From Vulcanimicrobiota bacterium (lineage in GTDB: Bacteria > Vulcanimicrobiota > Vulcanimicrobiia > Vulcanimicrobiales > Vulcanimicrobiaceae), in contig CAWHWQ010000001.1 of the NCBI GenBank assembly GCA_963833095.1, positions 64,001-128,000 on the forward strand: DNA of 64,000 nt. The letters are read 5' to 3'. Shown piece by piece: positions 16,000-56,605 of the stretch (position 1 is the first letter of the stretch; every line of letters begins with the position of its first letter). The notes under the pieces were generated by a model. That model was given only the letters and a program-made list of their open reading frames with translations, was not told the origin of the DNA and did no database searches. The position numbers and the translations under genes were made by a program.

Positions 16000-19800
<3,801 letters not shown>

Positions 19801-20001: not shown

Positions 20002-21267
20002 ATGCCGCCCGACGACACCCAAATGCGCGCCGCGCTACGGTCAATTTTCGACGCCGCGGTTGCCAGCGCCGACCCGCGAAAGGTCTTGGCTGCCCACCTC
20101 CCGCAGCCGCCCTCCGGCCGCGTTATCGTGGTGGGCGCGGGCAAGTCGGCGGCCCTCATGGCTGCAGCGCTCGAGGCTGCCTGGCCGCAGGTTCCGCTCG
20201 AGGGACTCGTTGTAACGCGCTACGGCCACGCGGTTCCGACCCATTCTATAGAAGTACTGGAAGCGGCCCACCCCGTTCCGGACGCTAACAGCGAGCGAGC
20301 GGCCGATCGCATCCTCGAGTGCGTGCGAGGACTGGGACCCGGCGATACCGTCATCGCCTTGATCTCCGGTGGCGGTTCGGCGCTGATGGCCAAGCCGGCC
20401 CCGGGTCTGACCTTGGCCGATAAGCAAGCAGTCTCGGAAGCGCTGCTTACCTCCGGCGCTACCATTACCGAAATGAACGCCGTCCGCAAGCACCTCTCGG
20501 CGATTAAGGGCGGCCGGCTTGCCCAGGCGGCAGCGCCTGCGCGGGTCATAACCCTCGCGATCAGCGACGTTCCCGGTGACGACCCCGCGACGATCGCGAG
20601 CGGGCCGACGCTCGCCGACCCGACGACCCTCCCCGAGGTGCGCGCAATCATCGAGCGCTACGGCATCAGCCTTCCGCAGGCCGTCCCGCCGTATCTCGAC
20701 CGCGCCGCGGAAACGCCAAAGCCAGGGCAGATCGCGCAGGACGTGCGCTTGATCGCAACGCCGGCCATGGCCCTGCGCGCGGCAGCCGCGAAGGCAAGCG
20801 AGCTCGGCTTCGCGCCCTTGGTTCTCGGCGAGCTCGAAGGCGAAAGCCGGGATCTGGGGATCGTGATGGCCGGCATTGCACGCAGCGTGCGCGCGCACTC
20901 GGTCCCGATCGCGCCGCCTGCGGTGCTCATTTCGGGCGGTGAAACCGTCGTGACCATCGGCAGTGGCCCGGCCGGCCGCGGTGGGCGCAACATGGAATTT
21001 CTTTTGAGTCTCGCGCTCTCGCTCGAAGGTGCGCCCGGAATGTGGGCTGTCGCCGCTGATACCGATGGGCGCGACGGTAGCGAAGATGCCGCGGGCGCAT
21101 TTGTCACGCCCAACACACTGCTTCGCGCGCGAAGCGCGCACGTCGACGCGAGCGACTTACTCAATCGACACGACAGTTATAGCTTTTTCGAAGCGATCGG
21201 GGATATCTTGGTCACCGGCCCGACACTCACCAACGTCAACGCGTTGCGCGCCGTCATTATCGCGTAA
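20002..21267 (+). CDS. Glycerate 2-kinase (TtuD/GckA, MOFRL family)
   Basis: GAGKS, HPVPD, ISGGGSAL, SDVPGDD, GGE..V, GRGGRN and TGPTLTNVN motifs. Confidence 0.92.
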   Translation: MPPDDTQMRAALRSIFDAAVASADPRKVLAAHLPQPPSGRVIVVGAGKSAALMAAALEAAWPQVPLEGLVVTRYGHAVPTHSIEVLEAAHPVPDANSERAADRILECVRGLGPGDTVIALISGGGSALMAKPAPGLTLADKQAVSEALLTSGATITEMNAVRKHLSAIKGGRLAQAAAPARVITLAISDVPGDDPATIASGPTLADPTTLPEVRAIIERYGISLPQAVPPYLDRAAETPKPGQIAQDVRLIATPAMALRAAAAKASELGFAPLVLGELEGESRDLGIVMAGIARSVRAHSVPIAPPAVLISGGETVVTIGSGPAGRGGRNMEFLLSLALSLEGAPGMWAVAADTDGRDGSEDAAGAFVTPNTLLRARSAHVDASDLLNRHDSYSFFEAIGDILVTGPTLTNVNALRAVIIA

Positions 21268-21315: not shown

Positions 21316-22377
21316 ATGCCCGCGAAACGATCGACACCGGCCTCCGGGTCGGGTCTGGCCGCGGTAGCTGAACGCGCTGGTGTTTCACTCGCGACGGCTT
21401 CGCGCGTCCTGACCGGGAGCAGTCATCGTGTCTCGCGCGATTTGCGTGAGCGGGTCCTTCACGCTGCAGAAACCTTGGACTACGTCCCCAACGCTAGCGC
21501 CCGCAGTTTGAGTACCGGCATGCGCAAGATCGTCGGTGTGCTGCTCCACGACATGCTCGATTCGCAGAACTACGAGTACATTCGAGCACTCGAAGAGTCC
21601 GCCGACCGCGCCGGCTGGCTAATCATGCTCGCAAACGCGAGTCGCAACGTCGAAAAAGAGTTCCGCTACCTTCGCGAGTTTCGTGCCGAGCGCGTCGGCG
21701 CCATTGTCCTCGGTGGTTCGGGAATCGATGATGACGAGTACCGCGCGCGTCTGAACCGCGAGCTGGAAAGTTATGTCAAACATGGCGGACGCGTGGTTGT
21801 GGGCGCGCGGCACGGCTTGCCGTTCACGGAGTTCGTTCCGGACAACGTGGGTGGTGCGAAGGCCGCGATCGAACATTTGCTCGAGCGCGGACATCGCCGC
21901 ATTGGAATCATCACCGGACCCCGTGCGACTACCGGCACGACGGATCGGCTCCTCGGCGCAAAGAAGGCGTTAGAGGAACAGCGGCTCGCGTGGGATGAGT
22001 CGCTCGTCGTGGAAGGCGACTCACGACGCGCGAGCGGTGTTGCAGGATGCGAGCGCCTCCTCTCGCGTGCTCCCGACATCACTGCCATTTTCGCGATGAG
22101 CGACGATATGGCGTTTGGCGTTTACGAGGCGGCAAGCGCCCACGGCCTGCGGATTCCGATGGACCTTTCCGTTATCGGATACAACGATGTTGCGATGGCG
22201 CGCGTGCTCTCGCCGCCGCTAACGACTGTGAGCTATCCGACCGCCGAACTCGCCCGTGGAGCTGTCGAGGCCTGCGTCGGAGAGGTCGCGCTCGAGCGGA
22301 TGCACGTCGTTGTTCCAAGCGAGTTGATCGTTCGCAAGAGCGTCGGCGCTCCCCGCGTGATGTCCGGCGGCACCTAG
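21316..22377 (+). CDS. LacI-family transcriptional regulator
   Basis: VAERAGVSLATASRVL HTH; GHRRI; IPMDLSVIGYND; PPLTTV. Confidence 0.93.
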   Translation: MPAKRSTPASGSGLAAVAERAGVSLATASRVLTGSSHRVSRDLRERVLHAAETLDYVPNASARSLSTGMRKIVGVLLHDMLDSQNYEYIRALEESADRAGWLIMLANASRNVEKEFRYLREFRAERVGAIVLGGSGIDDDEYRARLNRELESYVKHGGRVVVGARHGLPFTEFVPDNVGGAKAAIEHLLERGHRRIGIITGPRATTGTTDRLLGAKKALEEQRLAWDESLVVEGDSRRASGVAGCERLLSRAPDITAIFAMSDDMAFGVYEAASAHGLRIPMDLSVIGYNDVAMARVLSPPLTTVSYPTAELARGAVEACVGEVALERMHVVVPSELIVRKSVGAPRVMSGGT

Positions 22378-22416: not shown

Positions 22417-22950
22417 ATGGCTATCATCGGAATTATCGGCGCAGACGATCGAGCGGTCGCTATCGGCAAAATGCTGAAGCATGGCGGCAACGTCGTCTGC
22501 TTCAGCGACCTTGACGACGACCGCACATCACAATCAGCAGCAGAGGTCCTCGGCGAGGGAACGTTTGCTACTACACCACATCAACAAGCAGTAACTTGCG
22601 ACACGCTGTTCCTAACCATTCACTGGCAAGACCTCGAGCGAGCGCTCGTCGAACTGGGCACGTATAAAGACGGCATCGTGGTTGATGCCACGCGGCCTCC
22701 GGATCTCGGGCAGCTCAGCGGTGCAGAGCTGCTCGCGCACAAGCTCGACAACCCGCACGTCGTCAAGGGCTTCGTCGAGCCGCTTGACGGCGACGAAAGC
22801 GAGTTCATTCGCATTGCCTCGGATGATCCGGCGGCGCGCGCCGAGGTCGGGGAACTTATCGCGCACTGCGGACGCAGCGCACTCGACGTGGGACCGCTTG
22901 CGAACGCCCGCACAATCGAACGCGCGGTCGCCGAACACCTTTCACGGTAA
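22417..22950 (+). CDS. NADPH-dependent F420 reductase-like protein (degenerate Rossmann motif)
   Basis: IVVDAT, SGAELLA, HVVKGF and DVGPLANARTIE; GxGxxG replaced by GADDRA. Confidence 0.6.
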   Translation: MAIIGIIGADDRAVAIGKMLKHGGNVVCFSDLDDDRTSQSAAEVLGEGTFATTPHQQAVTCDTLFLTIHWQDLERALVELGTYKDGIVVDATRPPDLGQLSGAELLAHKLDNPHVVKGFVEPLDGDESEFIRIASDDPAARAEVGELIAHCGRSALDVGPLANARTIERAVAEHLSR

Positions 22951-25900
22951 GCGAACCCGCAGACTAAGCTGCGCGGTACGTGCCATGGGGTAACTCATCG
23001 GCACGTACCCGCCGCGCCCGTAGCTCCACGGCAGCGCCGGCGTGATCCCGTTATTGGTCGGCACCCCGTTGCCCACGTAGCCAGGTGGTCCGATCAAATA
23101 CGGATTGCCCTGGAGCTGCGTCGGCGTCGTCACGTTGAGGACGTTGGACCAATCGAAGGCAATGGTCAGCCGGGAGGTTGCGTCGTCCTCGACGTGGAGC
23201 GAGAGCAGCAATTGGGGCGGTGTGCGCAACGTGTTGGGGTCGCTTCCTTCGGCCGTTCCAAGCGAGCCGACGTACGGATTGCTCTGCGCATTGTATGGTT
23301 GCGCCGGATTTTCCAGGAAGTAATAGTTGTAGCCTGGGTTGTAGTAGTTGTCATTGGGAATTTGCTCGGGTTTATCCGTGACGGGATTGAAGATCCAGAT
23401 CATCGTTCCATTGCCGTACGGATATCCCGATTCGTACGAGAGTGACGGCGTGATGCGTAGGCGCCGGTTATTCAAATCGAGCTCGTAGGACAGCATGGCC
23501 GTCAGATCAGGCACGTAGCCGGCGGGGAAAAGATGCCCGGCCGCAACCGCAGCCGCGTTGAGATCGTTGAATGCGAATTGCGACGCACTTGAGGAATAGG
23601 CACGAACGGTGTTCGCGGTGAGTTCGAAACCGCCACGCTTGACGTACAATTCGAATCCGTGCGCCCGCAAGTCGCCCGCATTGGTCGGGACGCCAACGCC
23701 GTTTGGGCTTTCGCCTGACGCGATTGCAGAGCGAAAATTGTAGGGCAGGACGTCGATGCGATTGGTCTCGTCGCTCGCGTAGTAGGTCACGCGTACTTGA
23801 GTCCGGCCGCCGCTCTCGAACGAGTACGTCTGGTTGCGGCCGACCTCGGGCGCAAGCGGTGCGAACGGCGCGGGCGAACCTGATGGGCTCACGTTGGTCG
23901 AATCGACGCGATCGGTTTCGAGCGGGGCCGGCGCGACCGTGTTGTGATCGTAGGTGACGCGTACCGAATATTGGTTGCCGATGCGGTAGGATGCCGCAAC
24001 GTGCGGATCGAGGGCCGCCTCGTTATAAGCGGACCCGCTACTGGGAACGACGTGCGTGCCCGTCAGGCGCAGCGCGCCGGTCAGATCGAAGCGACGCGAG
24101 AGCGACCACGTGTCACCCGTGTAGACGAGATAGGATTGCAGCGTTGGGTTTGAGGTGATGTATTCATCCGCCGTTGGTACCACCTGATCGAGAAACGAGG
24201 TGTTGACCCGGTAGTCGGCGCCGTACTTAATGTCGTGCCGATCGCTTGCTGCATCATCGACGTCGTACGACAGACCGGTTTCGCGAGCGCCCTGCTGCGC
24301 CGACAGCGAGATGACTCCGTCAGGATAGGAGAGATCGTCCCAAAACGGGCCGCCCGCCGACGACCCGTACTGCGAACGATAGACCTGAATGCGCGAGAGC
24401 GCGTGCGCGCTCGTGTGCGCCCACGCGATCTTGGCTAACGCAAAACTCCCGCGGAGCCCCGAAGCATAGGTGACCGGCGTGTTTGGATTCACCTCCCCCG
24501 GAAACGTCGTGGAGGTACCGTCGAAGGCACCGACGGTTTCGCCCGGATAGGGCGTACCGTACTGATTGTAAGCGGCCTGTCCAGTGAGCATCACGAGCGA
24601 AAGATCGTCGCGCGCATCCAAGGCGAAATGAACGTTTCCCGCGAGCGTCGCCGTGCCGCGTGACTGCAATGCGAGTCCGTACGTGCCGGCTTCCGATGGG
24701 TAAAACGTGTAGCCGTCGCCGTAGGTGAAGTACTCGCTCGAGAGCGTCGTTGCGAACGCGTAGCGCCAACGCAAGTCCGGCGTCGCCCACAACGCTTCCA
24801 GCGAGAGGCCCTGAAGCTGCGTGCCGAAGCCGCTGCTAAGCGTCGCAATCGTGCGACCGGGATAGATGCCGGTTGCCGGGATCTCGTCGATGATTCCGCC
24901 CAGTGCGTTCTCGCCTTGCGCCTCGTAACCGGCCAGCGTCACCGTCGTCGATCCGATACCGGTCGTTGGGAGCTGCGCACCGGCGATATTGCCGCCGGGC
25001 TCCGCCACGATGCCCTGCGGAACAGGAACGGAGTCGTAGTCGAAGATCGCGTCCGAAATCTTTCCACCGCGCAAGATCGCATTAGCGAACGAATCCTGGT
25101 CCACGCCCGGCACGCCGGCGATCGCACCCTGCACGCTACCGCTTAAATAATTCCCGAGCCCGGACGCCGACGCGACCGGCGCGAGCGCTTGAGCACGTGA
25201 TCCATTCACGGTGAAGGCGTCGCTAGTCGAACCTACCTCAAAACTCGACGAGCGCGCGCGCACGCTCCCGATCGTCTTGAGTACCGGCGCGAGCGCAAAT
25301 TCGAGGTGCGCTCTCCCGCCGGGAAGCACACCGATACCGCTCTCTGATGCATCAGCGTATCCGCTTGCGCGTACCGAGACGAGGTACGTTCCTGCAGCGA
25401 CACCAAGGAGCGTAAACGATCCGCGCGCGTCGGTGCGCACCGCGTACCGTCCCGCATTCGAAACCGCCGACACGCCCGCATTGGCGATGGGCAATCCGCT
25501 TGCCGAACGAACGATTCCAAGGATCGTACCAGTCGTTGATTCCGCTGCGCGCGCAGCGGCGCAAGAGGCGATTGTCGCCACAACTGCGAGCGTGACCAGC
25601 GCCGCCGTGCGCAGCGCCGCTGCAAGCATGCACTCAACGCACAGCGCGATTATGGCGTATGACAGCAGCACCGGCCCCGCGTGCGCCACGAGCACCGAGC
25701 GTGGATCGAACACGCCGACGCCACCGAATCGGACCTCGTAGCCCTCCATGGCGATTACGAGCCCAAGCGAGAGCGTGAGCGCGCACGCATTCCACCAAAA
25801 GCGTTGCGCAACTCCGGAAGGACGTAATCCAACCAACTCGTCGGGGGCAAACCAGCGCACGGCGGCCGCGTACCATGCCAGCATGACGCTCAAGAGCAAG

Positions 25901-26061
25901 GCCACGGCCGCGGCGGGCCGCAACGCCTCCTGGTGAAAATCCGAAGGGCCGATGCCCCATAAGCCATTGTTCGAAAGCCATTCGGTGATCCCGTCACCGA
26001 AGATCGCGGCCCAGAGGGCAACCGCGACCAGCATCCCGAGAATGAGCAGCGTTCGACGCAT
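22942..26061 (-). CDS. TonB-dependent receptor with carboxypeptidase-regulatory domain and an in-frame N-terminal multi-TM extension
   Basis: GTILGIVRS..GLPIANA, GTYLVSV..SGY, amphipathic beta strands, C-terminal RTAQLSLRVRL. Confidence 0.8.
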   Translation of the reverse strand: MRRTLLILGMLVAVALWAAIFGDGITEWLSNNGLWGIGPSDFHQEALRPAAAVALLLSVMLAWYAAAVRWFAPDELVGLRPSGVAQRFWWNACALTLSLGLVIAMEGYEVRFGGVGVFDPRSVLVAHAGPVLLSYAIIALCVECMLAAALRTAALVTLAVVATIASCAAARAAESTTGTILGIVRSASGLPIANAGVSAVSNAGRYAVRTDARGSFTLLGVAAGTYLVSVRASGYADASESGIGVLPGGRAHLEFALAPVLKTIGSVRARSSSFEVGSTSDAFTVNGSRAQALAPVASASGLGNYLSGSVQGAIAGVPGVDQDSFANAILRGGKISDAIFDYDSVPVPQGIVAEPGGNIAGAQLPTTGIGSTTVTLAGYEAQGENALGGIIDEIPATGIYPGRTIATLSSGFGTQLQGLSLEALWATPDLRWRYAFATTLSSEYFTYGDGYTFYPSEAGTYGLALQSRGTATLAGNVHFALDARDDLSLVMLTGQAAYNQYGTPYPGETVGAFDGTSTTFPGEVNPNTPVTYASGLRGSFALAKIAWAHTSAHALSRIQVYRSQYGSSAGGPFWDDLSYPDGVISLSAQQGARETGLSYDVDDAASDRHDIKYGADYRVNTSFLDQVVPTADEYITSNPTLQSYLVYTGDTWSLSRRFDLTGALRLTGTHVVPSSGSAYNEAALDPHVAASYRIGNQYSVRVTYDHNTVAPAPLETDRVDSTNVSPSGSPAPFAPLAPEVGRNQTYSFESGGRTQVRVTYYASDETNRIDVLPYNFRSAIASGESPNGVGVPTNAGDLRAHGFELYVKRGGFELTANTVRAYSSSASQFAFNDLNAAAVAAGHLFPAGYVPDLTAMLSYELDLNNRRLRITPSLSYESGYPYGNGTMIWIFNPVTDKPEQIPNDNYYNPGYNYYFLENPAQPYNAQSNPYVGSLGTAEGSDPNTLRTPPQLLLSLHVEDDATSRLTIAFDWSNVLNVTTPTQLQGNPYLIGPPGYVGNGVPTNNGITPALPWSYGRGGYVPMSYPMARTAQLSLRVRLP

Positions 26062-26077: not shown

Positions 26078-26470
26078 CTACTGCTTGACGATTGCTGCCG
26101 TCGATGCGCTGGCTTGACCGAATGTAAGTGCCGAAGATCCCGCATGATAGCCGTTCTTGCTCAGGATAAAGGCCAGAATATCGACGTACTGGGTATGCGA
26201 AAGGCTCGCCGGCGCGTTCATCGGCATGTTGGTCGTCATATAAGTAAAGATGTCGCTGACATCCGCCTTGACCTTGGTACTCAGCGTCTTAAAGTTTGGA
26301 CCGCTTAAAGCCGGACCGGCTCCGCCCTCGAGCTGCGTCCCATGACAGAGTGCGCATTTGGCTGCGAAAGCGGAAGCACCAGCGGAGACCTGCGCTGAGG
26401 TGAACGATATCGGAGTCGCGGCAGCAGCAACTAGCACGGCTGCTGCCGTGAAAAGGGAGAGAACCTGCAT
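26078..26470 (-). CDS. Periplasmic monoheme cytochrome c (candidate XoxG-type electron acceptor)
   Basis: Signal peptide, CALCH, GPAL and NMPMNAP motifs. Confidence 0.85.
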   Translation of the reverse strand: MQVLSLFTAAAVLVAAAATPISFTSAQVSAGASAFAAKCALCHGTQLEGGAGPALSGPNFKTLSTKVKADVSDIFTYMTTNMPMNAPASLSHTQYVDILAFILSKNGYHAGSSALTFGQASASTAAIVKQ

Positions 26471-26476
26471 CCGCGA

Positions 26477-26932
26477 TCAGCGTCGAGCGACTTGCGCGTG
26501 GACGTCGTCGAGATCTTCGATCGTATTGAGCGTCACGGCGTCTTTGATCGCCCCACTCTTAATGCCCGACGACGCGCGCATCTTTCCGGCCAGTTCGTCA
26601 GAATGTTTGTAGCCGCGCACCGCATCGTTGTGCTTCTTGATCCTCTCGGGCGAGATCGATCCGCCATTCTGCGCGAGGACCCATTCCTCGAACTCAATGT
26701 ATTTCGGATGATTCCTCTTGATGAACTCCACCGTCTTCTGCCGATCGAGTCCCAGCGCGTCCAGCGTCATTTGGTCGAAACCTTTCCCGCACTCGTCATA
26801 GCTATCCGGAAGCACCCCGGCGGCAGCTAACGTCAGCTTCGTCCAAAGACGCGGCAAGTGGATCGCGCCGAGCGGTCCGGCCGTGTCCGAGCTGATGAGG
26901 GGAACGACATGTTCGAGCGTTACGGTTGGCAT
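26477..26932 (-). CDS. DUF5069-like protein
   Basis: GPLGAIHLPRLW.K...G.LP..Y..CGKGFDQM.L..LG pattern. Confidence 0.7.
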   Translation of the reverse strand: MPTVTLEHVVPLISSDTAGPLGAIHLPRLWTKLTLAAAGVLPDSYDECGKGFDQMTLDALGLDRQKTVEFIKRNHPKYIEFEEWVLAQNGGSISPERIKKHNDAVRGYKHSDELAGKMRASSGIKSGAIKDAVTLNTIEDLDDVHAQVARR

Positions 26933-26941
26933 TGATGTCTC

Positions 26942-27862
26942 CTAAGCGTTAGTTGGTTGTTTGAGAGTGTGCTGTCCGTGGCGATCGAGAAAGGTCAACT
27001 CAGAAACGCCGGACTTGTCGAGCTGCCCAAGTCGTAGGGCTTTCATGCGCTCGAACTGATCGAAGGTTGCTTGGGCCACCGGTAGTGAGAGGTCGTGATC
27101 GCGGGCAAGACCCAGCGCGATCCCCGAATCCTTCGCCGCGTGTTCGGCAGAAAAGTAGACATCGTGTTCGCGATTCTGCATGTCCTCGCCATCGGTCTCG
27201 AGGACGCGCGAGTTTGCTCCAGTTTGCGAAAACACTTCTCGCAGCATCGTCAGATCGAGTCCAAGCGCATCGCCCAGGCCCAAACCCTCAGCAAGGCCCG
27301 CAGTGTTGATGTTCATAACCATGTTGACTAGGGCTTTGACTTGCGCGGCGCGGCCGGCTTGGCCAACATAGCGAAGCGACGCGCTCATCTTGGCAAGCAT
27401 TGGTTCGACGCGATCGAAGATCTCACGACGACCGCCGACCATCAAGTACAACGTGCCGTTGCGCGCTTGCGGAATCGAACTTGCCATGCACGCTTCCAGC
27501 GAGTGCGCACCGCGGGCTTCCGCGCGCCGCTGCACCTCCACGTGAATCGCCGGCGTCACCGTCGCGCAGTTGACGAAGATCTTTCCTTTTGCGCCCTCGA
27601 GCAGACTGTCACCGCGTTCCGCGAAGATGCGTTCCATCGCGGCGTCGTCGGTGACCACCGTGATAATGATGTCCGCATGTGCGGTGACGTCCGCAAGCCT
27701 GGTGTAGGCGGTACCCTTGGTCTGTGCGGCTGCGTCCTGCGCCGCTTCGCTGCGAATATCGTAGTAGGCGACCACTGGGTAGCCGACCTCCGCCAAGCGT
27801 TGACCGATGTTCGCGCCCATGCGACCAGCGCCGACGATCCCGATAGTAGGAAGCTTGCTCAT
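26942..27862 (-). CDS. NAD(P)-dependent beta-hydroxyacid dehydrogenase family protein (3-HIBADH/GarR-like)
   Basis: GIVGAGRMG Rossmann motif, LYLMVGG, catalytic Lys in VKALVN, KDSGIAL. Confidence 0.88.
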   Translation of the reverse strand: MSKLPTIGIVGAGRMGANIGQRLAEVGYPVVAYYDIRSEAAQDAAAQTKGTAYTRLADVTAHADIIITVVTDDAAMERIFAERGDSLLEGAKGKIFVNCATVTPAIHVEVQRRAEARGAHSLEACMASSIPQARNGTLYLMVGGRREIFDRVEPMLAKMSASLRYVGQAGRAAQVKALVNMVMNINTAGLAEGLGLGDALGLDLTMLREVFSQTGANSRVLETDGEDMQNREHDVYFSAEHAAKDSGIALGLARDHDLSLPVAQATFDQFERMKALRLGQLDKSGVSELTFLDRHGQHTLKQPTNA

Positions 27863-28689
27863 CCGTTTCCATTCGGTTTGAAGTAGGTGATGTGATACGC
27901 ATTCAAGATCTGGTCGATCTTCGACTGCTGCTGCACGAGGACGCGATTGAGTTGGATAACGAGCGCGTCATTCCCCGAGCGAGTAGCCATCGCCATCGGA
28001 AACGTGTATTGCTCGGGCGAGCCTTGGCTGCGCGCGTTGGGGATGATCACGGCGGTCAGGTCGGGATGCTGCCCGACGAAGTAGCCGACCGCGGGGTCCC
28101 AGGTCAGGCCTACGTTGATCGTGCCGGCCTGCACGGCGTCGACGATTGCTTGCGGTGATGCATCTTCTTCGTCTGCCGTCATGAATGGCTTGGCACCGAT
28201 CGTGAGGGCCCGAAGTTTGAGACCGATCTCCACCGGCGTATCGACCTCGTAGCCGATCTTGACCTGGTGGAGCTCGGGCGAATCGAGCGACGTGATCCCG
28301 TCAGCGCGCGATCCTTTCTTATAGACGAACACATAGGACGAAATGTAGTACGGGCGCGTGGTTTGGAGATCGGCAATAGTATAGGGTACGTCAACGACCA
28401 GATCGCATCGGCCCTTGTTGACATACAGATGCACCATCTCAGTGAACCCGTCCTCACCTCGGATCGACTTCCATACATAAACCACTGGCCTCCCCAAGCT
28501 CGCGCCGATCAACTGTGCAATGTGATTTTCAAATCCGTTGCCTGCACGATTCGAGTAGGGCATGTAGTCTGGGTCGGCGCAGACGCGCAACGGCACGACC
28601 GCCGGGGCCGGCGGCGCTGCCGCCGCCGTACCCCATAGCAGGAGTGCTCCGATAATCGCGCCGCCGAGTTGCAATCGGCGCATCATCAC
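27859..28689 (-). CDS. xoxJ: XoxJ/MxaJ-like periplasmic binding protein
   Basis: LRVCADPDYMPYSN...GFENHIAQL and TRPYYISSYVFV motifs; translationally coupled to xoxF. Confidence 0.85.
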   Translation of the reverse strand: MMMRRLQLGGAIIGALLLWGTAAAAPPAPAVVPLRVCADPDYMPYSNRAGNGFENHIAQLIGASLGRPVVYVWKSIRGEDGFTEMVHLYVNKGRCDLVVDVPYTIADLQTTRPYYISSYVFVYKKGSRADGITSLDSPELHQVKIGYEVDTPVEIGLKLRALTIGAKPFMTADEEDASPQAIVDAVQAGTINVGLTWDPAVGYFVGQHPDLTAVIIPNARSQGSPEQYTFPMAMATRSGNDALVIQLNRVLVQQQSKIDQILNAYHITYFKPNGNG

Positions 28690-30473
28690 TCGATCGTGAA
28701 GACGACGAGGTCACCGCCGAGCGTCGTGTATTTCGCCAAGTCCGCAGCTGCACCAACGGCACCGAGGCCCGCCGTGGGGTTGGTGAGTCCCGCCGCAAGG
28801 CCGATACCGGCCCAGCCGCCGACGCCCGCAAGAATTGCGACGTACTCTTTTCCGCCGTAGGAATAGACGATCGGTGAACCGATCATGCCCGACGGCATCT
28901 TTTGCTTGAAGAGCAAACCGCCGGTCTTGGTGTCGACGGCCTTGAACCATCCATCCATCGTTCCGTAGAACGCGATCCCATTGGCGGTTGCGACGCCGCT
29001 CCAGGCCGGAAAGTGCTCGTGATCGCTCCACACGATCTTGCCGGCATTGGGATCCCATGCAATCACTGCGCCGCCATAATTACCCGGCCCGCGGTACATC
29101 TTCACAATGGCGCCGACGAACGGGAATCCGGCTTTATATTTGACTGCAAAGGGTTGATAGTCTTCGCACCAGTGGTTGGTTGGGACGATGAAGTACCCAG
29201 TCGACGGATCGAATGCCGCCGGCTGCTGATCCTTGCTTCCGATCGACGCAGGGCAGATGCCCTTGGTGTTGTAGCCCTGCCGCGTCGAGTAGGCCGTGTT
29301 CTGGTTCGGTTTTCCGGCCGCGACGTTATAGTCGTATGCCCAGTTGACCGATGGATCGAACTTGTTGGCAAGGAGCAATTTGCCCGTTTCGCGATTTAGC
29401 TCGAACGCAAAACCGTCGCGATCGAAGTGCACGAGCGCCGGCACGTCTTGGTTCTGGACTTTGATGTCGGCAAGAATCATCTCGTTGACGCCGTCGTAGT
29501 CCCATTCATCGTGCGGCGTCATTTGAAACGCCCACACGGCCTGGCCGGTTCCAGGATGACGGGCGAAGATCGTCATCGACCACTTATTCTCACCCGGCCG
29601 CTGCGACGGATTCCACGTCCCTGGGTTGCCCGTTCCGTAGTAGAAGAGATCGAGCTTGGGATCGTAGGAGTACCAGCCCCAGGTCGTTCCGCCGCCGACT
29701 TTCCATTCGTCGCCGCGCCACGTCGCGGTGCCTTGGTTGCGCGGACCGTGGAAGCCGCTGCCGATGAGAATATCGGAATCCGGCCCCTCGCTGTATGCGC
29801 GCCAAACCTGATGTCCGCTGTGCAAATCGAGGCCCGTAACGTATCCGCGGACGCCGAATTCACCCCCGGAAACACCGACGATGACGCGGTTCTTTTCCGG
29901 GATGACGAGTGGCGCCGAAGTCAGCGTTTGACCCAGTTCGGGATCGGCTTCCTTATATTTCCAATCGACTTTCCCGGTAGCCGCGTCGAGCGCGTAGACG
30001 TTCCCGTCGAGCGCGTCGGCGATGATCATGCCGTTCCCGTAGCCGACGCCACGATTGACCAGGTCGCAGCATGCGACCGACGTTGCAAAGGTGTCTTGCG
30101 TCGGCGTGTATTCCCATTTGATGTGATAATCGTCCAGCGACACCGCGTAGACGTGATTGGGATAGGCGCTTTCAAAATACAGCGTGTCGCCGATCACGAG
30201 GGGCTGCCCTTCATGGCCGCGCGTGGCTCCGGTCGACATCATCCAGGCGACGTGCATATTCTTGGCATTATCGGTCGTGATCTGTGTGAGGTCACTGTGC
30301 CGCAGGTTTGCAAAATCGCCCGCGGGCATCACCCATTGATTCGGATTCTGGCTCATGTCGTTTAGCGAGACCTGCTGTTGAGCTCCCGCCGTCTGACTGT
30401 GAAGAAGGTACGCGCTGAGCAATCCAATAGCAAGCAGCGGCACGAGGACCACTGCAAAAAGACGTGTCTTCAT
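28686..30473 (-). CDS. xoxF: PQQ- and lanthanide-dependent methanol dehydrogenase
   Basis: Signal peptide, GHEGQPLV, vicinal ACCDLVNRG, GGEFGVRG, GTGNPGTWNP, HDEWDYDGVNE (extra Ln-binding Asp), GVGGWAG. Confidence 0.92.
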   Translation of the reverse strand: MKTRLFAVVLVPLLAIGLLSAYLLHSQTAGAQQQVSLNDMSQNPNQWVMPAGDFANLRHSDLTQITTDNAKNMHVAWMMSTGATRGHEGQPLVIGDTLYFESAYPNHVYAVSLDDYHIKWEYTPTQDTFATSVACCDLVNRGVGYGNGMIIADALDGNVYALDAATGKVDWKYKEADPELGQTLTSAPLVIPEKNRVIVGVSGGEFGVRGYVTGLDLHSGHQVWRAYSEGPDSDILIGSGFHGPRNQGTATWRGDEWKVGGGTTWGWYSYDPKLDLFYYGTGNPGTWNPSQRPGENKWSMTIFARHPGTGQAVWAFQMTPHDEWDYDGVNEMILADIKVQNQDVPALVHFDRDGFAFELNRETGKLLLANKFDPSVNWAYDYNVAAGKPNQNTAYSTRQGYNTKGICPASIGSKDQQPAAFDPSTGYFIVPTNHWCEDYQPFAVKYKAGFPFVGAIVKMYRGPGNYGGAVIAWDPNAGKIVWSDHEHFPAWSGVATANGIAFYGTMDGWFKAVDTKTGGLLFKQKMPSGMIGSPIVYSYGGKEYVAILAGVGGWAGIGLAAGLTNPTAGLGAVGAAADLAKYTTLGGDLVVFTIE

Positions 30474-30547
30474 TCGTTTACTCCTGGCACCCGGTGTGCG
30501 TCGCCCTCAAGCGTAGGTTCGCGGGATTGTGCTTGGCAATCGACCGC

Positions 30548-30611
30548 CCTGATGATCATCAAACCTGATGATGCCGTCCAACAGGGACCCGCGCTTACGG
30601 CTGATAATCAG
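30548..30611. promoter_or_regulatory. TGAT-based palindromes and repeats in the xoxF/luxR divergent intergenic region
   Basis: TGATGATCATCA (30550-30561), CCTGATGAT twice (30548, 30564), CTGATAATCAG (30601-30611). Confidence 0.45.
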
Positions 30612-30617
30612 TCCCTT

Positions 30618-31325
30618 ATGGACGTTGACGCGGTGTACCATCGTCCCACCACCATACCCCCGCTTGCGGGTCGGGTCGGCGTCGCAATTGTCGCGAACCG
30701 GCACACGACTGCCGCTGCTCTCGCGGAGCTTTTGAGTGCCGATCCGGAACTTGCGCTACTCGGCATCTCCGACGCCGCGGGTGGAGCAGCGTTGCTTACC
30801 GATCACTCGCTTCGCGTACTTATCGTGAATCTCAGCCTTACCGACGATGACGGTGATTCGGGGACCTCAGAGGGCGTGCGCTTTATCCGCTATGCAAAGC
30901 AGATAAGGCCCGACGTCGGAGTTCTCTCGCTCAAGCGCAAGGTCGACGAACATCAGCTTCGCGCCGCGCTTGATGCAGGTGCCGATGCGTGTTGTCTCGC
31001 GGTCACACCCGGCGCACGGCTGCGCAAGGCGATCAAAGTTGTCGCCGACGGCGCGACCTGGCTCGATCCCGAGGTCGCGCACGCGCTGTTTCACAGCGAG
31101 CCGCGCGACGCGCACGACGCACCGGTTCCGACGCCGCACCTGTCCCCACGCGAGCAACAGATCTTGCGCCTCGTTGTGGAAGGGTATTCAAACGAGGAAA
31201 TCGCGCAACACTTACAGTGCGCGTATCCTACGGTGCGGACGCATCTGGCGCACATGTATCGCAAACTCGAAGTTGACGATCGCGTTTCGGCGGCAGTCTA
31301 CGCGCTGCGCCACGGCCTCACGTGA
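30618..31325 (+). CDS. NarL/LuxR-family atypical response regulator
   Basis: REC-like fold with VLIVNLSL (Asn at the phospho-Asp position); LSPREQQIL...TVRTHLAHMYRKL HTH; start approximate. Confidence 0.85.
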   Translation: MDVDAVYHRPTTIPPLAGRVGVAIVANRHTTAAALAELLSADPELALLGISDAAGGAALLTDHSLRVLIVNLSLTDDDGDSGTSEGVRFIRYAKQIRPDVGVLSLKRKVDEHQLRAALDAGADACCLAVTPGARLRKAIKVVADGATWLDPEVAHALFHSEPRDAHDAPVPTPHLSPREQQILRLVVEGYSNEEIAQHLQCAYPTVRTHLAHMYRKLEVDDRVSAAVYALRHGLT

Positions 31326-33304
31326 TTGTGGCGTTTGCCGCGCTTCTCGCAATCGCAACGCCGACGCCAACGCCAACACCCTCCCCGCTTCCGGTCATCG
31401 GCACGGTTCGTGTCGTCACCGGCTCGCAAGAGTCGATGCATAATCTTCCTGTACCGGCGTCACTGTTGGATCAGCAAGCGATCCTCAACCTCCCCGCCGT
31501 TACAGGCGACCAGCTGCTGCGCTATTTGCCCGGCTTCGACCGCAATCGCAGCAATAGCATGTTCACCAACTACGGACAGCTACGTGTTTCATTTGCAGGG
31601 TTGGGCAACGATCGCGGACTCGTCCTTGCCGACGGCATTCCGGCGCAGGACGGCTTCGGTGGACAAGTTGATTGGGCCCAATTTCCCGCGCCGGATCTGA
31701 TTCGCGCCGAACTTCTGCGTGGACCGGGATCGGCGCTCTACGGCGGGGGCGCGGTCGGTGGCGTTCTCGCGCTCCAAACCTACGGCCCAACTCCGGAACT
31801 CGCCGGCCCCGCGGAGGGAACTGTCAGTTTCTCCGGCGGCACGCACGCGTTTGCGCAAACCTACGCGCAATCCACCGCGCCGCTCGGCGGCAAACTCTCG
31901 GCGTCGGTTTCGGCGCTCGCGCAACAGTTGCAATACAACGATCTGGCGCCGGGGTACCAGACCGCGCGCGATAACGAGGCGCAATCGCAAAGCAGCATGG
32001 CAAACATCCGGCTGCGCTATGCAGCCGACGCGAACACGATCCTCGAGTACGGCTACCTCGGCGCGTGGGATTATCAGCAAGAAGGGCGACCGAACTACGA
32101 TTTCTGGCGAAAGCTGGTGCAGAACGCGGTGCGCATCGCCCACGGGACACGTCAGTCATCGCTGACCGCCAGTTTCTACCAGCGCAACGGCTTCGTTACC
32201 AATCGCGCCGACATGTATCCCAGCGCCCCGGGAACGCTGCTCTATACGCAGTACGTTCCGACGCACGAGAACGGCGTGCTCCTGAGCTGGATCGTCGGCA
32301 ACGAGCGTTCGACCTTCGCCGTGCTCGGTAACGCAAAATTCGTCGGCGGCGTAAGCGATCAGTACAATGGCGCCGGCGCATTCACCGTCTCGGGCAGCGG
32401 CTCGCAAGATTCCTCGGGTATCGCGCTTGAGGAGACGCTGCGCGGCCCGCGATTCGAAGTGGTTGGAGGGGTGCGGGCCGACTCGATTGACCTTGTGAAC
32501 GCCGCGACCCAAAAAGGTGCAGTGATTACAACCATCGCGCCACGCGTCGATCGCGCACTTTCACCGCGAGCCGCCGTGCGCTACGATCTAAGCAAAGAGC
32601 TGGCCTTTCGAGCATCGGCCGGCGGCGATTTCCGCGCACCCTATCTGAACGAATTGATCCGCGGCTATCAAATCGGCGCGGTCCAGTACCTGCCCAACTC
32701 GGCGCTGGTACCCGAACGCAGTTCATCTCTGGTCGCTGGGTTCGATTGGATCCACGCAAACAACGAGATTTCCGCTGATTTCACGCACGCGTTTGTCAAC
32801 GATGCGATCGACTTTCGCACGATCAGTCCGACGGTGCAAATGCGCAGCAACTTCTCGCATACGCAAACCGACGGGACGACCATCGTCTACGTTCGACGCC
32901 TACGAGGATGCTCAAAGTTCACGCTCTGGGGAACCCAGCAATATTCGCGCATCATTGTGGGCACGGCCGGTGAAGACGGAAAACAGCTCCCCTATGTCCC
33001 CAAGGCATCGGCGAGCGCCGAGTACGACGCACCGGTCGGCGCCGTGCAGACCGGGGTAAGCATCAACTATTCCGGGATGACCTGGGCCGACGACCTGAAC
33101 CAACAACCGCTCGGTAGCGCCGTTACCGCGGGCGTGCATGCGATCGTTCCGCTCCGCGATGGCGTGAGGATCATCTTCAACGCAGACAACGTGACGAATG
33201 CACGCTATCTCTCCAGCATCGACCGTTACGCGCCGCCCCAGGTTCTCTCACTCGCACTCACCGCGCCGGTCGGGAGCCCGCAAGCGGCAGCCTGCTCGAG
33301 ATAA
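31322..33304 (+). CDS. TonB-dependent receptor
   Basis: Plug motifs LVLADGIP and AELLRGPGSALYG; FRAPYLNEL, LVPERS and NADNVTN. Confidence 0.9.
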   Translation: MIVAFAALLAIATPTPTPTPSPLPVIGTVRVVTGSQESMHNLPVPASLLDQQAILNLPAVTGDQLLRYLPGFDRNRSNSMFTNYGQLRVSFAGLGNDRGLVLADGIPAQDGFGGQVDWAQFPAPDLIRAELLRGPGSALYGGGAVGGVLALQTYGPTPELAGPAEGTVSFSGGTHAFAQTYAQSTAPLGGKLSASVSALAQQLQYNDLAPGYQTARDNEAQSQSSMANIRLRYAADANTILEYGYLGAWDYQQEGRPNYDFWRKLVQNAVRIAHGTRQSSLTASFYQRNGFVTNRADMYPSAPGTLLYTQYVPTHENGVLLSWIVGNERSTFAVLGNAKFVGGVSDQYNGAGAFTVSGSGSQDSSGIALEETLRGPRFEVVGGVRADSIDLVNAATQKGAVITTIAPRVDRALSPRAAVRYDLSKELAFRASAGGDFRAPYLNELIRGYQIGAVQYLPNSALVPERSSSLVAGFDWIHANNEISADFTHAFVNDAIDFRTISPTVQMRSNFSHTQTDGTTIVYVRRLRGCSKFTLWGTQQYSRIIVGTAGEDGKQLPYVPKASASAEYDAPVGAVQTGVSINYSGMTWADDLNQQPLGSAVTAGVHAIVPLRDGVRIIFNADNVTNARYLSSIDRYAPPQVLSLALTAPVGSPQAAACSR

Positions 33305-36487: not shown

Positions 36488-39400
36488 CTAAAAGTCATCT
36501 TCTTGCGGGTTCTCAACGTACGGGGCTTCCTCTTCCTCGTCTTCAAAGGGCTTCTCTTCCTCGTACGAATCCTCGTCTTCTTCCTCGAGCTCGTAACCCT
36601 GCACACCCTCGACGTCGGTGTCCTCGGTCTCTTCTTCCGGGGTGAAGATCTCGTCCGCCTCGGCTTCGCGCACCGGCATCGGCGGCGGCGTCGGAAGCGG
36701 AATCGTCGCGTCCAGCGGTTTGCTGTCGTCGATCTCTTCCTCTTCCTCTTCCAATTCCGCTTCGGGATCCTCGACCTCGGTCGGGTCGCCGATACCCTCG
36801 GCGGCCGCCGCTTCGGCAAGCACTTCGCGTGCCGCGACCTGCGTCTGCGAGGGCACGGGTTGATCGTCGCCCATGAGCAGACCGATCTCCTGACGCTCGC
36901 GTTCGCCCAGATCGTCGTCCTGCATGCGAACGTCGATCTCTTCGCGATTCTCGGTGAGCACTTTGACGTCGAGCGCCAGCGACTGGAGCTCCTTGATAAG
37001 GACTTTGAACGATTCCGGAACGCCCGGTTCCATCACGTTCTCGCCCTTGACGATCGCTTCGTACGTCTTCACGCGACCGACGACGTCGTCGGACTTGACC
37101 GTGAGCAGTTCTTGCAGCGTATAGGCCGCACCGTACGCTTCGAGCGCCCAGACTTCCATTTCACCGAAGCGCTGACCACCGAACTGCGCCTTACCGCCCA
37201 GCGGCTGCTGCGTGATCATCGAGTACGGTCCAGTCGAACGCGCGTGGATCTTGTCGTCGACTAAGTGCGCGAGTTTGAGCATGTAGATCATGCCGACGGT
37301 GATCGGGCGCGAGAAGCGCTCACCCGAACGGCCGTCACGCAGCCACGTCTTGCCGTCGGGCGCCATACCGGCGTCCTGCAGCCACTCGGCGATGTCCTCC
37401 GCGTGCGCGCCGTCGAAAACCGGCGTCGCGACATTCATGCCGAGCATACGCGCAGCCCATCCCAGATGCGTTTCCATGATCTGGCCAAGGTTCATACGCG
37501 AGGGAACACCGAGCGGGTTGAGCACGATGTCGACCGGCGTACCGTCTTCCAGATACGGCATGTCTTCTTCCGGCAGCACTTTGGCGATGACGCCTTTGTT
37601 GCCGTGACGTCCGGCCATCTTGTCGCCTTGCAGAATCTTACGCTTCTGCGCGACGTAGACGCGCACCAGATGATTCACGCCCGGCGAGAGTTCGTCGCCG
37701 TTCTCGCGCGAGAACACCTTGACGTCGATGATCTTGCCCTTTTCGCCGTGCGGAACTTTGAGGCTCGTGTCGCGAACTTCACGCGATTTCTCGCCGAAGA
37801 TCGCGCGCAGCAGGCGCTCTTCCGCCGTCAGCTCGGTCTCGCCCTTGGGCGTGACCTTACCAACAAGAATGTCTTCCGGGCGAACTTCGGCACCAATGCG
37901 GATGATGCCGCGCTCGTCGAGATCCTTGAGCGCGTCTTCACCGACGTTGGGAATGTCGCGCGTAATCTCTTCTGGTCCGAGCTTGGTATCGCGGGCCTCG
38001 CACTCGTACTCCTCGATGTGAATCGAGGTGAAGCGATCTTCCTTGACCATGCGTTCGCTGATCAAGATCGCGTCTTCGTAGTTGTAACCTTCCCACGGCA
38101 TGAACGCCACGAGCACGTTCTGCCCCAGCGCCAGTTCCGCTTCATCGGATGACGGGCCGTCGGCGAGCACTTGACCCGCCTGGACATGCTCGCCCAGTTT
38201 GACGATCGGACGCTGGTTGATACACGTGCCCGCATTGCTGCGCACGAACTTGAGCAGATCGAAGACCTTCTCGGTGCCGTCGTCGAGCTTGAGCGTGATG
38301 CCTTTGGCGTCGACGGCTTCAACCGTGCCGCTCAGGTTGGAAACAATGAGCGATCCCGAATCCTTGGCAGCGCGATACTCCATTCCGGTGCCCACGATCG
38401 GGGCGTCCGGACGGAGCAACGGCACGGCTTGACGTTGCATGTTCGCGCCCATCAGCGCGCGGTTGGCGTCGTCGTGCTCCAAGAACGGAATGAGCGCGGT
38501 TGCGACCGACACGATTTGCTTGGGTGAAACGTCCATCAGCTGGACGCGCAGCGCCGGCTCTTCGATGTATTCTTCCGCGTAACGGCAGACAACGGAGTCC
38601 GAGGTGATCAGTCCCGCAGGGTCGACCTGCGTGTTGGCTTGAGCAATGATGTACTCGTCTTCGCGGTCGGCGGTGAGATAGATGATCTCATCGGTCACGC
38701 GGCCATCTTGCACGACCCGGTACGGCGTCTCGATGAAGCCGAATTTATTGACGCGCGCATAGGTCGCAAGCGAACCGATCAGACCGATGTTCGGACCTTC
38801 CGGCGTTTCGATCGGACAGATGCGGCCGTAGTGCGAGTGGTGAACGTCGCGAACTTCGAAGCCCGCGCGTTCGCGCGAGAGACCGCCCGGCCCGAGGGCT
38901 GAGAGACGGCGCTTGTGGGTCAGTTCGGCCAGCGAGTTGGTCTGATCCATGAACTGCGAGAGTTGCGATGAACCGAAGAACTCTTTGATCGCAGCGACGA
39001 CCGGACGGATATTGATCAGCGCCTGCGGCGTGACCGTCTCGATGTCTTGCACCGTCATGCGCTCGCGCACGACGCGCTCGAGGCGCAGCAAACCGACGCG
39101 GAATTGATTCTGCAACAGTTCACCGACCGAACGCACGCGGCGGTTACCGAGGTGATCGATGTCGTCCTTGGCGATGATGCCGGTCGCGACTTTGATCAAG
39201 CGGCGGATGACGGCGATCATGTCCGAGCGCGTGAGGCACTTGACGTCGATCGAGGGTTCTTCCAAACCCGCGTACTCGTTGATCTGAAGCGTCGGCGTCG
39301 TGAGGCGCTCATCAGCGTCGGGGTTCTCGATGCGGTAGTGGAACTTGCCGCCCAGTTTGTAGCGGCCGACGCCCGCGAGGTCGTAGCGCTTCTCGTCGAA

Positions 39401-40378
39401 GAACAGCGACTCGAGGAGCTTCTCCGCGTTCTCCGCGTTCTCGGGCTCGCCCGGTCGCAGCTTCTTGTAGATTTCCTTGAGCGCGTCTTCGCGCGTCTTG
39501 ATGTCTTTGTCTTTGTCGATCGAGTTCTGGACCAGCGGCGAATTGTTGAACAGCGCGAGAATCGCTTCGTCACTCTCCCAATTCAAGCCGAGATCCGGGC
39601 GCGAAAGCGCGCGAATAAAGGTCGAGACGTAGATCTTGCGGTTCTTATCGATGCGAACGCCGATCGTGCCCTCGGTCTCGTCGTTTTTCGTACCGTTGTC
39701 GGTCTCGAATTCGATCCAGGCGCCGCGGTTCGGAATGATCGTCGCGTTGTAGGTCGGGCGCGCATTGGTGTCGACGTCTTGACTGTAGTACACGCCGGGC
39801 GAACGCACGAGCTGACTTACGATCACGCGCTCCGCGCCGTTGATCATGAAGGTGCCCTTGTCGGTCATGAGCGGGAAATCGCCCATGAAAATTTCTTGGT
39901 CGGGAATGCCTTTGATTTCGCCGGACTCGGCCGTGATCAAGCGGACGCGCACGCGCAACGGCGCGCTGTAGGTCATGTCGCGTTCGCGACACTCTTCAAT
40001 AGAATACTTGGGCTCGCCGAGCGAATGCTCGCCAAACTCGAGAATCAAATTGCCGGTGAAGTCTTTGATCGGCGAGATCGAAGAAAATGCCTCGCCGAGA
40101 CCGTCGGTCTTGAACCAATCGAAGCTGGCTTTTTGCAGTTCGATCAGATTCGGAATCTCGAGCACGTGCGGAATTTTCGCAAACGTGTAACGCGAGCGCT
40201 TGGGCCCGGGATCCGGGGGCTGCTCGATCGTGAACGCTCCCGCCGCCATCGGGAACGACTGCGGCACGGCCGTCGTTGTTACGCCCGCATTGGGCGCAGG
40301 ACGCTCCGTGCGCTTCGACTTGCCCTTACTCGCCGCGGAGCTCTTCGCGGTCGCTTTCGGTGCCGTCGTTTTCGCCAT
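36488..40378 (-). CDS. rpoB: RNA polymerase beta subunit
   Basis: [36 protein letters not shown] and [13 protein letters not shown] motifs. Confidence 0.99.
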
Positions 40379-40517
40379 TATCTCTCTCTTACTGACCTTT
40401 GAGGTTGGGCAGGGTGCCACACAAGCAAAAGAGGCCGAGTTCGTCCCCTCACATCACAGGGTCTTGACTCGTCCTTCTTTATTCTTATGGCTTATTCGCC
40501 CCGGGGCATAGACGAAG

Positions 40518-55290: not shown

Positions 55291-55329
55291 AAGGCGGGTC
55301 GCGGTGTTCTTATCGCGACCCGCCTTTTT
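55291..55329. terminator. Intrinsic terminator between convergent genes
   Basis: AAGGCGGGTCGCG...CGCGACCCGCCTT followed by a T tract. Confidence 0.8.
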
Positions 55330-56509: not shown

Positions 56510-56605
56510 CGTTCTTCTCCCACGAGCGTATCGCTCTAGTATATACAAAAGCGGTTCCCTTTCCAGCGAAAGGCAAATCGAGGTCGCGGTCTTAATCCAC
56601 GAACC

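Follow-up and report, generated by a model that had tools for sequence, protein, structure and literature searches.

Why should two cytoplasmic proteins be encoded in the middle of the genes of a periplasmic methanol-oxidation unit? The question is raised by a locus in a 64,000-nt stretch of a Vulcanimicrobiota bacterium genome (assembly GCA_963833095.1, contig CAWHWQ010000001.1, positions 64,001 to 128,000), which is referred to as the window in its whole length. The names of close homologues assign the window to Candidatus Aquilonibacter, in the Eremiobacterota. At this locus, five open reading frames (ORFs) lie head to tail on the minus strand and encode the lanthanide-type methanol dehydrogenase XoxF, a XoxJ-like periplasmic binding protein, a 306-aa dehydrogenase of the HIBADH family (26942..27862, hereafter DH), a 151-aa protein of the DUF5069 fold (26477..26932) and a small cytochrome c. 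The gene order, natural fusions and residue conservation described below indicate that DH and the DUF5069 protein are a real functional unit, which we read as an autonomous and ancient cytoplasmic two-protein oxidoreductase module.

Coupling of the dehydrogenase and the DUF5069 protein

One genome per species was scanned with the alignment of the DUF5069 protein, and the best 80 of 590 confirmed loci were kept. These comprised 46 loci of Eremiobacterota, including L065, which was counted there because its DH is identical to that of G038, a genome of the window's class, and 34 loci of Chloroflexota, Latescibacterota, Gemmatimonadota and a few others. An intact DH gene was found directly before the DUF5069 gene in 39/46 Eremiobacterota loci. 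In the other loci of this phylum, DH was in pieces (L049), cut by the contig end (L035) or 1.2 kb away (L055), no DH was present in the locus (L036 and L052), or the locus lay at a contig end (L040 and L079). Outside Eremiobacterota the opposite order was observed, with DH directly after the DUF5069 gene in 19 of the 34 loci. DH followed after a 324-nt gap in L080 and was located 2 kb off on the other strand in L098; 11 loci had no DH within 6 kb and two were at contig ends. The relatives are not independent by kinship, and such counts therefore overstate their statistical weight. Among 17 orthologue loci with 8-kb flanks, DH adjoined the DUF5069 gene in 16, and xoxF was present in just three of those 16.

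Two natural in-frame fusions of the proteins were also found. P0412 has 446 aa and occurs on 3 contigs; P0421, of 462 aa and on 4 contigs, contains a Q/T-rich linker. Apparent fusions in G013, G022 and G024 were rejected, as the long frames proved to be separate frames or frameshifts. An AlphaFold 2 (AF2) model of P0412, built from an unpaired alignment, had a mean predicted local distance difference test (pLDDT) value of 86.1 and a predicted TM-score (pTM) of 0.64; both domains fold, and their mutual placement is not confident. Because the two genes adjoin each other in four phyla, in one order or the other, are naturally fused, and conserve the residues that mark their subfamilies, we consider DH and the DUF5069 protein to be coupled, in agreement with the earlier note on this DNA, which had treated them as a pair. 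The other neighbours of the pair in other phyla share no theme and include lysA, omega-aminotransferase, ArgE-like, asd, hom, GFO/IDH/MocA, QueF-like, enolase-superfamily, DegT and nitroreductase genes. In the literature searches made, neither this coupling nor the phylum-wide placement of XoxF on the module was found in print.

The dehydrogenase defines a new subfamily

DH matched PF03446 (NAD_binding_2, 103.9 bits) and PF14833 (NAD_binding_11, 72.1 bits), making it a member of the HIBADH superfamily. It fell below every NCBIfam equivalog cut-off by more than 170 bits, the best scores being those of tartronate semialdehyde reductase (TIGR01505, 134.8 bits, cut-off 340.75) and HIBADH (TIGR01692, 118.5 bits, cut-off 291.6). 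Alignment to solved relatives placed EACMASS of DH at the position of DAPVTGG in 3w6u and EGPVSGS in 3doj. This bears out the motifs that the earlier note had read from the letters, namely a Rossmann motif, a catalytic Lys and EACMASS where DAPVSGG is usual. The catalytic Lys (GxxxxxxKALVN) is invariant in the cross-phylum alignment, E[AGT]CMASS was present in 80/86 DH orthologues, and a Cys occupied that place in 82/86. The window's DH shared 60-67% identity with DHs of other phyla, and the mean column identity of the alignment was 74%. Asp35 is likewise invariant across phyla. Since NAD+ is favoured where strand beta2 ends in an acidic residue, Asp35 suggests that DH uses NAD+. Both DH and the DUF5069 protein lack signal peptides, judged by eye and as the earlier note had said, and were read as cytoplasmic. 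Within its known superfamily, DH represents a new subfamily with sharp limits.

We also noticed a stretch, ETDGEDMQNR(D/E)H (about residues 219-235 of the window's DH and 220-236 of P0412), that is near-invariant across phyla and is the least confident part of the DH domain in the fusion model (pLDDT <60). It could be a lid that is ordered only with substrate or partner.

Given this family membership, DH might be an ordinary oxidoreductase of C2-C4 hydroxy acids or semialdehydes, acting for example on glyoxylate, hydroxypyruvate or, toward glycerate, tartronate semialdehyde. The DUF5069 protein would then be a structural or regulatory subunit, and the adjacency to xoxFJ would reflect inherited order or a supply of glycerate for C1 assimilation. 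We rate this as rather doubtful, a little less likely than the aldehyde chemistry proposed below. It agrees with the identity of the two best NCBIfam matches and with the retention of the catalytic Lys/Asn and the KD motif. However, the equivalog scores are far under their cut-offs, an invariant CMASS stands where a carboxylate-binding Ser-Gly-Gly loop would be, and the conserved cysteines and the GFA fusions described below are left unexplained.

The DUF5069 protein belongs to a cysteine-bearing branch

The window's small protein scored 25.7 bits with PF16798, just under the gathering cut-off of 27, and many of its close homologues carry a PF16798 match. Its AF2 model (pLDDT 94.7) has seven helices and resembled 3omd in Foldseek (E 3.3e-4, TM 0.70-0.73) and in structural superposition (Z 15.2, root-mean-square deviation 2.6 over 132 residues). 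The nearest structure-atlas clusters were DUF5069 (score 0.95), and fold searches past 3omd returned only partial helix-hairpin matches (Z ≤5.4). The predicted fold thus confirms the protein as a DUF5069 member. The 3omd structure, from Leptospirillum rubarum, has been solved since 2010, and no function has been assigned to the family. No paper naming DUF5069 or PF16798 was found in the literature.

Eight polar residues conserved throughout DUF5069 (H25, R28, K32, D53, E82, N102, N136 and D140) are kept in the window protein. The earlier note had singled out a Cys in YDECGKGFD. This residue, Cys48, is indeed present and was conserved in 27 of the 30 aligned orthologue rows, the exceptions being three distant paralogues, but across the wider family its column is not a conserved one. 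It is therefore a mark of the orthologue group and not of DUF5069 at large. At a threshold of E 1e-3 or better, clustering at 50% identity divided the DUF5069 family into 481 clusters. Many of these relatives, among P0242-P0390 and P0409-P0421, are tandem doublets of about 300 aa.

Fusions of DUF5069 to other domains were found in two groups. Fusions to an ArsR-type helix-turn-helix (HTH; P0304, 8 members) and to GAF (P0322, P0354 and P0373) are of Cys-less paralogue types outside the DH-linked orthologue group. The Cys-type protein is the one fused to enzymes, namely to DH, to Amidohydro_2 (P0248, 8 members, 17 contigs) and, in Poribacteria, to a GFA domain (PF04828; P0267, a singleton, and P0419, which NCBI lists under the name of a GFA family protein). 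The P0248-type fusion was absent from the 401 Eremiobacterota genomes searched, and no fetched locus had an Amidohydro_2-like gene near the pair.

The fusions also bear on whether DUF5069 acts as a sensor of small molecules or as a regulatory domain, switching DH, and in other proteins a DNA-binding or enzyme domain, when a metabolite calls for it, instead of being a catalytic or carrier partner. We think this unlikely. The HTH, GAF and Amidohydro_2 fusions and the tandem doublets would suit such a domain, as would the persistence of DH without the DUF5069 protein in six relatives of the window's genus and the lack of confident docking in the model of the natural fusion (pTM 0.64). On the other hand, the HTH and GAF fusions belong to the Cys-less paralogues, the Cys-type protein is joined to DH, GFA and Amidohydro_2 enzymes, and the polar residues conserved in the family fit binding and catalysis alike. 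Whichever role the domain has, the tie of its Cys branch to one DH subfamily provides DUF5069 with a first testable partner, in the form of an expressible two-protein system.

A variant xox unit around the pair

XoxF (28686..30473, minus strand) carries a signal peptide and scored 603.8 bits with TIGR03075, over the cut-off (480.05) of the pyrroloquinoline quinone (PQQ) methanol/ethanol dehydrogenase family. Its best solved relative was 4mae (E 7e-209); in the alignment WDYDGVNEM is identical and the vicinal Cys pair (VACCD/ACCD) is kept. The extra Asp two residues past the catalytic Asp (D-Y-D), together with the vicinal Cys-Cys, we take to be XoxF motifs. The XoxJ-like protein (27859..28689, minus strand; PF00497, 26.7 bits) stayed below the family cut-offs of TIGR03871 (188 bits, cut-off 212.15) and TIGR03870 (119.8 bits, cut-off 258.1), and its place after xoxF and its SBP_bac_3 fold fit a XoxJ-like role. 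The cytochrome (26078..26470, minus strand, 130 aa), a generic small monohaem class I cytochrome c with a signal peptide (PF13442, 41.4 bits) and the haem motif CALCH, is not of the XoxG/cL type (TIGR03872, 24.7 bits, cut-off 147.8). It is probably the electron acceptor of XoxF. Such a gene followed the DUF5069 gene in 14/46 Eremiobacterota loci. The usual methanol dehydrogenase core is described as XoxF/XoxJ/XoxG (PMC10875860), and the term 'hydroxyisobutyrate' does not occur in that paper. The xox part of the window varies on this familiar theme of XoxF, XoxJ and a cytochrome.

The five genes are tightly packed, and all coordinates, overlaps and gaps given in the earlier note were reproduced. 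The xoxF/xoxJ and xoxJ/DH pairs overlap by 4 nt (ATGA) at 28686-28689 and 27859-27862, respectively; with an alternative xoxJ ATG one codon inward, the overlap would be 1 nt instead of 4. DH and the DUF5069 gene are separated by 9 nt, with AGGAG ahead of the ATG of the latter, and a further 6 nt separate the DUF5069 and cytochrome c genes. From this layout, the DH/DUF5069 module in the window is predicted to be co-transcribed with the periplasmic methanol-oxidation genes. A promoter and terminator scan returned counts at chance level.

On one side of the unit, a large envelope protein (22942..26061, minus strand) consists of an N-terminal membrane part, CarboxypepD_reg (PF13620) and a TonB-receptor-like barrel (PF00593). 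Its probable ATG is at 26061, 16 nt past the cytochrome stop, and it is retained in relatives without xox genes. On the other side, two genes run divergently on the plus strand. The first encodes a LuxR/GerE-type regulator (30378..31325; PF00196, 67.3 bits), whose listed ORF runs into the start of xoxF, and its real start is therefore probably further inward; in L113-L118, relatives from the genus without xox genes, nothing matched it. It overlaps by 4 nt the gene of a TonB-dependent receptor with Plug and barrel domains (31322..33304; PF07715 and PF00593), which adjoins DH also in genus relatives that lack xox.

These receptors lead to the question of whether the pair serves the cofactors of XoxF, through PQQ salvage or reduction or through lanthanide handling. 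In the window's genus (G000-G017), XoxF was present in 8/17 genomes and pqqC in none, including two single-contig genomes, and TonB-dependent receptors flank the cluster. Moreover, pqqC and pqqB adjoin the pair in three loci (L014, L020 and L037). However, DH occurred in 15/17 genomes of the same genus, the pair was also found in genomes without any PQQ alcohol dehydrogenase, and both of its proteins are cytoplasmic. A cofactor role for the pair is thus very improbable, and a role in PQQ biosynthesis was rejected on the contrast between DH (15/17) and pqqC (0/17). Bacteria of this genus may depend on imported PQQ, and candidate proteins for taking up PQQ and/or lanthanides are those encoded at 31322-33304 and 22942-26061.

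In family f3 (L014, L019-L021 and L025), the pair was observed near genes for an EgtD-like histidine methyltransferase (PF10017), an OpuA-type betaine ABC transporter and glutamate dehydrogenase. In L014 and L020, pqqC/pqqB were near it as well, the order in L020 being pqqC-pqqB-DH-DUF5069 with no xoxF.

The link between XoxF and the pair is one-sided

A search from the XoxF side returned 30 Eremiobacterota loci, of which three were cut by contig ends (L132, L140 and L148). The order xoxF-xoxJ-DH was present in 25 of the 27 assessable loci, which shows that the arrangement is not due to chance, and in the other two the DUF5069 gene came directly after xoxJ or xoxF (L133 and L142). DH and/or the DUF5069 gene were therefore directly downstream in 27/27 loci, spread over many genera, or in 26/26 without L139, which is from an unpublished genome; L140 is also unpublished and, being cut, was not counted. 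From the side of the pair, by comparison, xoxF was found in 13/46 Eremiobacterota loci and in none of the 34 loci of other phyla. DH was present in 44 of 48 genomes with XoxF, but this co-occurrence adds little because the background rate of DH in families f1 and f3 is 85%. The link is thus complete from the XoxF side and weak from the pair side. The earlier note had tied the pair to C1 genes and expected a neighbourhood survey to find it enriched there in other genomes. The tie holds at every assessable XoxF locus of Eremiobacterota, but most copies of the pair lie away from C1 genes, and the survey largely failed to find the expected enrichment.

The pair is the older resident of the locus

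In 41 relatives, orthologues of the DUF5069 protein, DH and XoxF were found in 28, 34 and 11 genomes, respectively (including the unpublished G036). A wider tally of 401 Eremiobacterota genomes, 13 of them unpublished, gave DH in 277: 249/296 in family f1, 27/30 in f3 and the window's own genome. The other 19 families had none (0/74). XoxF was present in 48/401, all in f1 or f3. Within the window's genus, the island occurs in four states: receptor/xoxF-xoxJ-DH-DUF5069-cytochrome c, receptor/DH-DUF5069, receptor/DH only (six genomes) and a still shorter form. A frequent order is rpoB, receptor on the other strand, DH, DUF5069, alpha/beta hydrolase and rpoC; in the Eremiobacterota loci, rpoB was upstream in 18/46 and rpoC downstream in 7/46. 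Because the pair is far more widespread, and the regulator, xoxF, xoxJ and the cytochrome are the variable parts, DH and the DUF5069 protein are the older resident module, with xoxFJ and cytochrome c sitting around it. The view of a xox operon interrupted by two inserted genes, which the earlier note had taken, is thereby turned around.

In the window, rpoC (16003-19800) and rpoB (36488-40420) enclose the whole xox/DH island and are separated by 16.7 kb, an unusual split of the rpoBC operon. The window's rpoC matches that of a relative in three frames (19800-17347, 17345-16536 and 16533-16003, minus strand). Since rpoC is essential, these breaks are most likely an assembly indel error, and other broken frames in this metagenome-assembled genome need care. 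Also between rpoC and rpoB, on the plus strand, are a glycerate 2-kinase-like gene (20002-21267; DUF4147 and MOFRL; NF041176, 247.6 bits, cut-off 550) and a LacI-type regulator gene (21316-22377), neither of which was seen outside the window's genus.

The DH tree agrees with taxonomy. Mapping the xox label onto this tree takes 8 changes, at least 5 of which are forced by well-supported branches. In the XoxF tree, the f3 sequences are placed inside f1; nevertheless, the approximately unbiased (AU) test did not reject f1 as one XoxF clade, i.e. vertical descent (p 0.224). Transfer of the whole xox-DH-DUF5069 block was rejected, as the DH tree follows taxonomy, and independent insertion was unsupported by the AU result. 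Because of these two results, an old xoxFJ-DH-DUF5069 linkage followed by many xox losses would be the most economical history. Such a history fits selection for co-transcription and, equally, plain inherited synteny in a stable rpoB-rpoC region.

These data return to the proposal that DH is an ordinary enzyme of C2-C4 hydroxy acids or semialdehydes. The glycerate 2-kinase-like gene in the same rpoB-rpoC island of the window's genus, the absence of xoxF from most genomes with the module, the very stable flanking synteny and the vertical inheritance that was not rejected are all compatible with it. However, the glycerate kinase is nearby only in this genus, and the neighbours in other phyla have no hydroxy-acid theme.

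A tentative aldehyde chemistry for the pair

A role of the pair in C1 or aldehyde metabolism is possible, at a chance that we place well below even. In its specific form, which is equally tentative but which we favour over the other readings, the module would use NAD+ to oxidise a small reactive aldehyde bound as a hemithioacetal, this aldehyde being formaldehyde in xox-bearing cells. The thiol would come from the invariant Cys125 in the substrate loop of DH and/or from Cys48 of the DUF5069 protein, and the catalytic Lys176 of DH would act as the base. The acid would then be released by the alpha/beta hydrolase (Abhydrolase_6) encoded after the pair in many Eremiobacterota (18/46 loci; absent from the window). 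In cells with xox genes the formaldehyde would be supplied by XoxF, and elsewhere the substrate would be endogenous formaldehyde or a similar aldehyde. In a narrower variant, Cys48 would serve as a protein-borne thiol that captures the aldehyde, and DH would oxidise the bound hemithioacetal with NAD+; we give this variant a slim chance.

Several observations are consistent with the hemithioacetal proposal. Besides the coupling of the two genes, the position of the module at every assessable Eremiobacterota XoxF locus, the invariant Asp35 and the hydrolase, three further points speak for it. The fusions of the DUF5069 protein to GFA in Poribacteria give an independent hint of thiol/aldehyde chemistry. 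The window's genome (G000, 80.7% complete) had no FrmA, Fae, Gfa, glutathione synthetase, EgtD or MshA over cut-off; the best TIGR02818 score was 72.3 bits (cut-off 543.95) and PF04828 had no match. Class III alcohol dehydrogenase (ADH)-like genes (E 1e-80 or better) were found in families without any DH (f2, 5/5; f19, 4/5; f20, 15/16), whereas f1 and f3 together had DH in 276/326 genomes and a class-III-ADH-like gene in 8/326 (tallies that include unpublished genomes).

Other observations weigh against it. The complementarity of ADH and DH amounts to two or three independent contrasts, family f6 (0/19) is without DH and without a class-III-ADH-like gene, and two Latescibacterota genomes carry both. 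No fetched locus had a GFA-like gene near the pair, and GFA is a broad, mostly uncharacterised family. We know of no HIBADH-family enzyme that oxidises hemithioacetals, and XoxF of the 4mae type reportedly takes methanol to formate in vitro. XoxF is much rarer than DH in Eremiobacterota (48/401 vs 277/401), it is missing from all 34 pair loci of other phyla, and none of five complete genomes from outside Eremiobacterota that carry the pair had a PQQ methanol/ethanol dehydrogenase over cut-off. In the window's genus, six genomes have DH but no DUF5069 protein. Finally, because vertical descent of XoxF was not rejected, its adjacency to the pair may be inherited synteny.

Elsewhere in the window, a Zn-dependent alcohol dehydrogenase is encoded at 55328-56830 (minus strand), its best NCBIfam match being glutathione-independent formaldehyde dehydrogenase (216.8 bits, cut-off 636.95). 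Lying 25 kb from xoxF, this gene is a possible alternative source of a formaldehyde-handling enzyme.

If the aldehyde/thiol proposal is true, the module would fill in the cytoplasmic step that is missing from methanol use in Eremiobacterota, and several phyla that are abundant in soil would have a new way of detoxifying formaldehyde. The Cys48-carrier variant, if true, would mean a formaldehyde dehydrogenase on the HIBADH fold that needs no low-molecular-weight thiol, and would explain how glutathione-less Eremiobacterota handle the XoxF product. If the aldehyde proposal fails, a very strongly conserved enzyme pair, with 60-67% identity between phyla, would still stand.

Comparison with known systems

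The proposed chemistry resembles the Gfa/FrmA(AdhC)/FrmB(FghA) systems in logic, as a small capturing or activating protein would work with an NAD+-dependent dehydrogenase and a hydrolase; in the present case this scheme is hypothesised from genes. The points of contact are the fusion of DUF5069 orthologues to GFA and the complementary distribution of class-III-ADH at the family level. In contrast to these systems, no relationship in sequence or fold was seen: DH has the HIBADH fold and is not a Zn-ADH, the DUF5069 protein is not GFA, the hydrolase is of the Abhydrolase_6 type and is not in the window, and no glutathione synthetase was found.

With the canonical xoxF-xoxG-xoxJ clusters, such as those of Methylacidiphilum fumariolicum (XoxF 4mae) and Methylorubrum (XoxF 6oc5), the window shares XoxF, a XoxJ-like protein and a c-type cytochrome. 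Unlike them, it has two cytoplasmic genes between xoxJ and the cytochrome gene, its cytochrome is not of the cL/XoxG type, and its genus is without pqqC. Moreover, the two extra genes are older and more widespread than the xox genes beside them.

DH has both Pfam domains, the Rossmann GxGxxG, the Lys-x3-Asn and the KD motif in common with HIBADH, the tartronate semialdehyde reductases GarR/GlxR and GLYR1 (3w6u, 3doj and 1vpd), and its similarity to solved HIBADH-family members is about E 1e-25 to 1e-29. The substrate loop, on the other hand, reads E[A/G]CMASS in DH and [DE][AG]PV[ST]G[GS] in the known beta-hydroxyacid dehydrogenases, and Asp35 stands in place of the NRT/NRS of the NADP-type enzymes. 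DH also differs from these enzymes in having a dedicated DUF5069 partner, to which it is in some cases fused. This partner shares with 3omd the seven-helix fold and the family-wide conserved residues, and its orthologue group is set apart from the 3omd family at large by the conserved Cys48 and by its genetic tie to one dehydrogenase subfamily.

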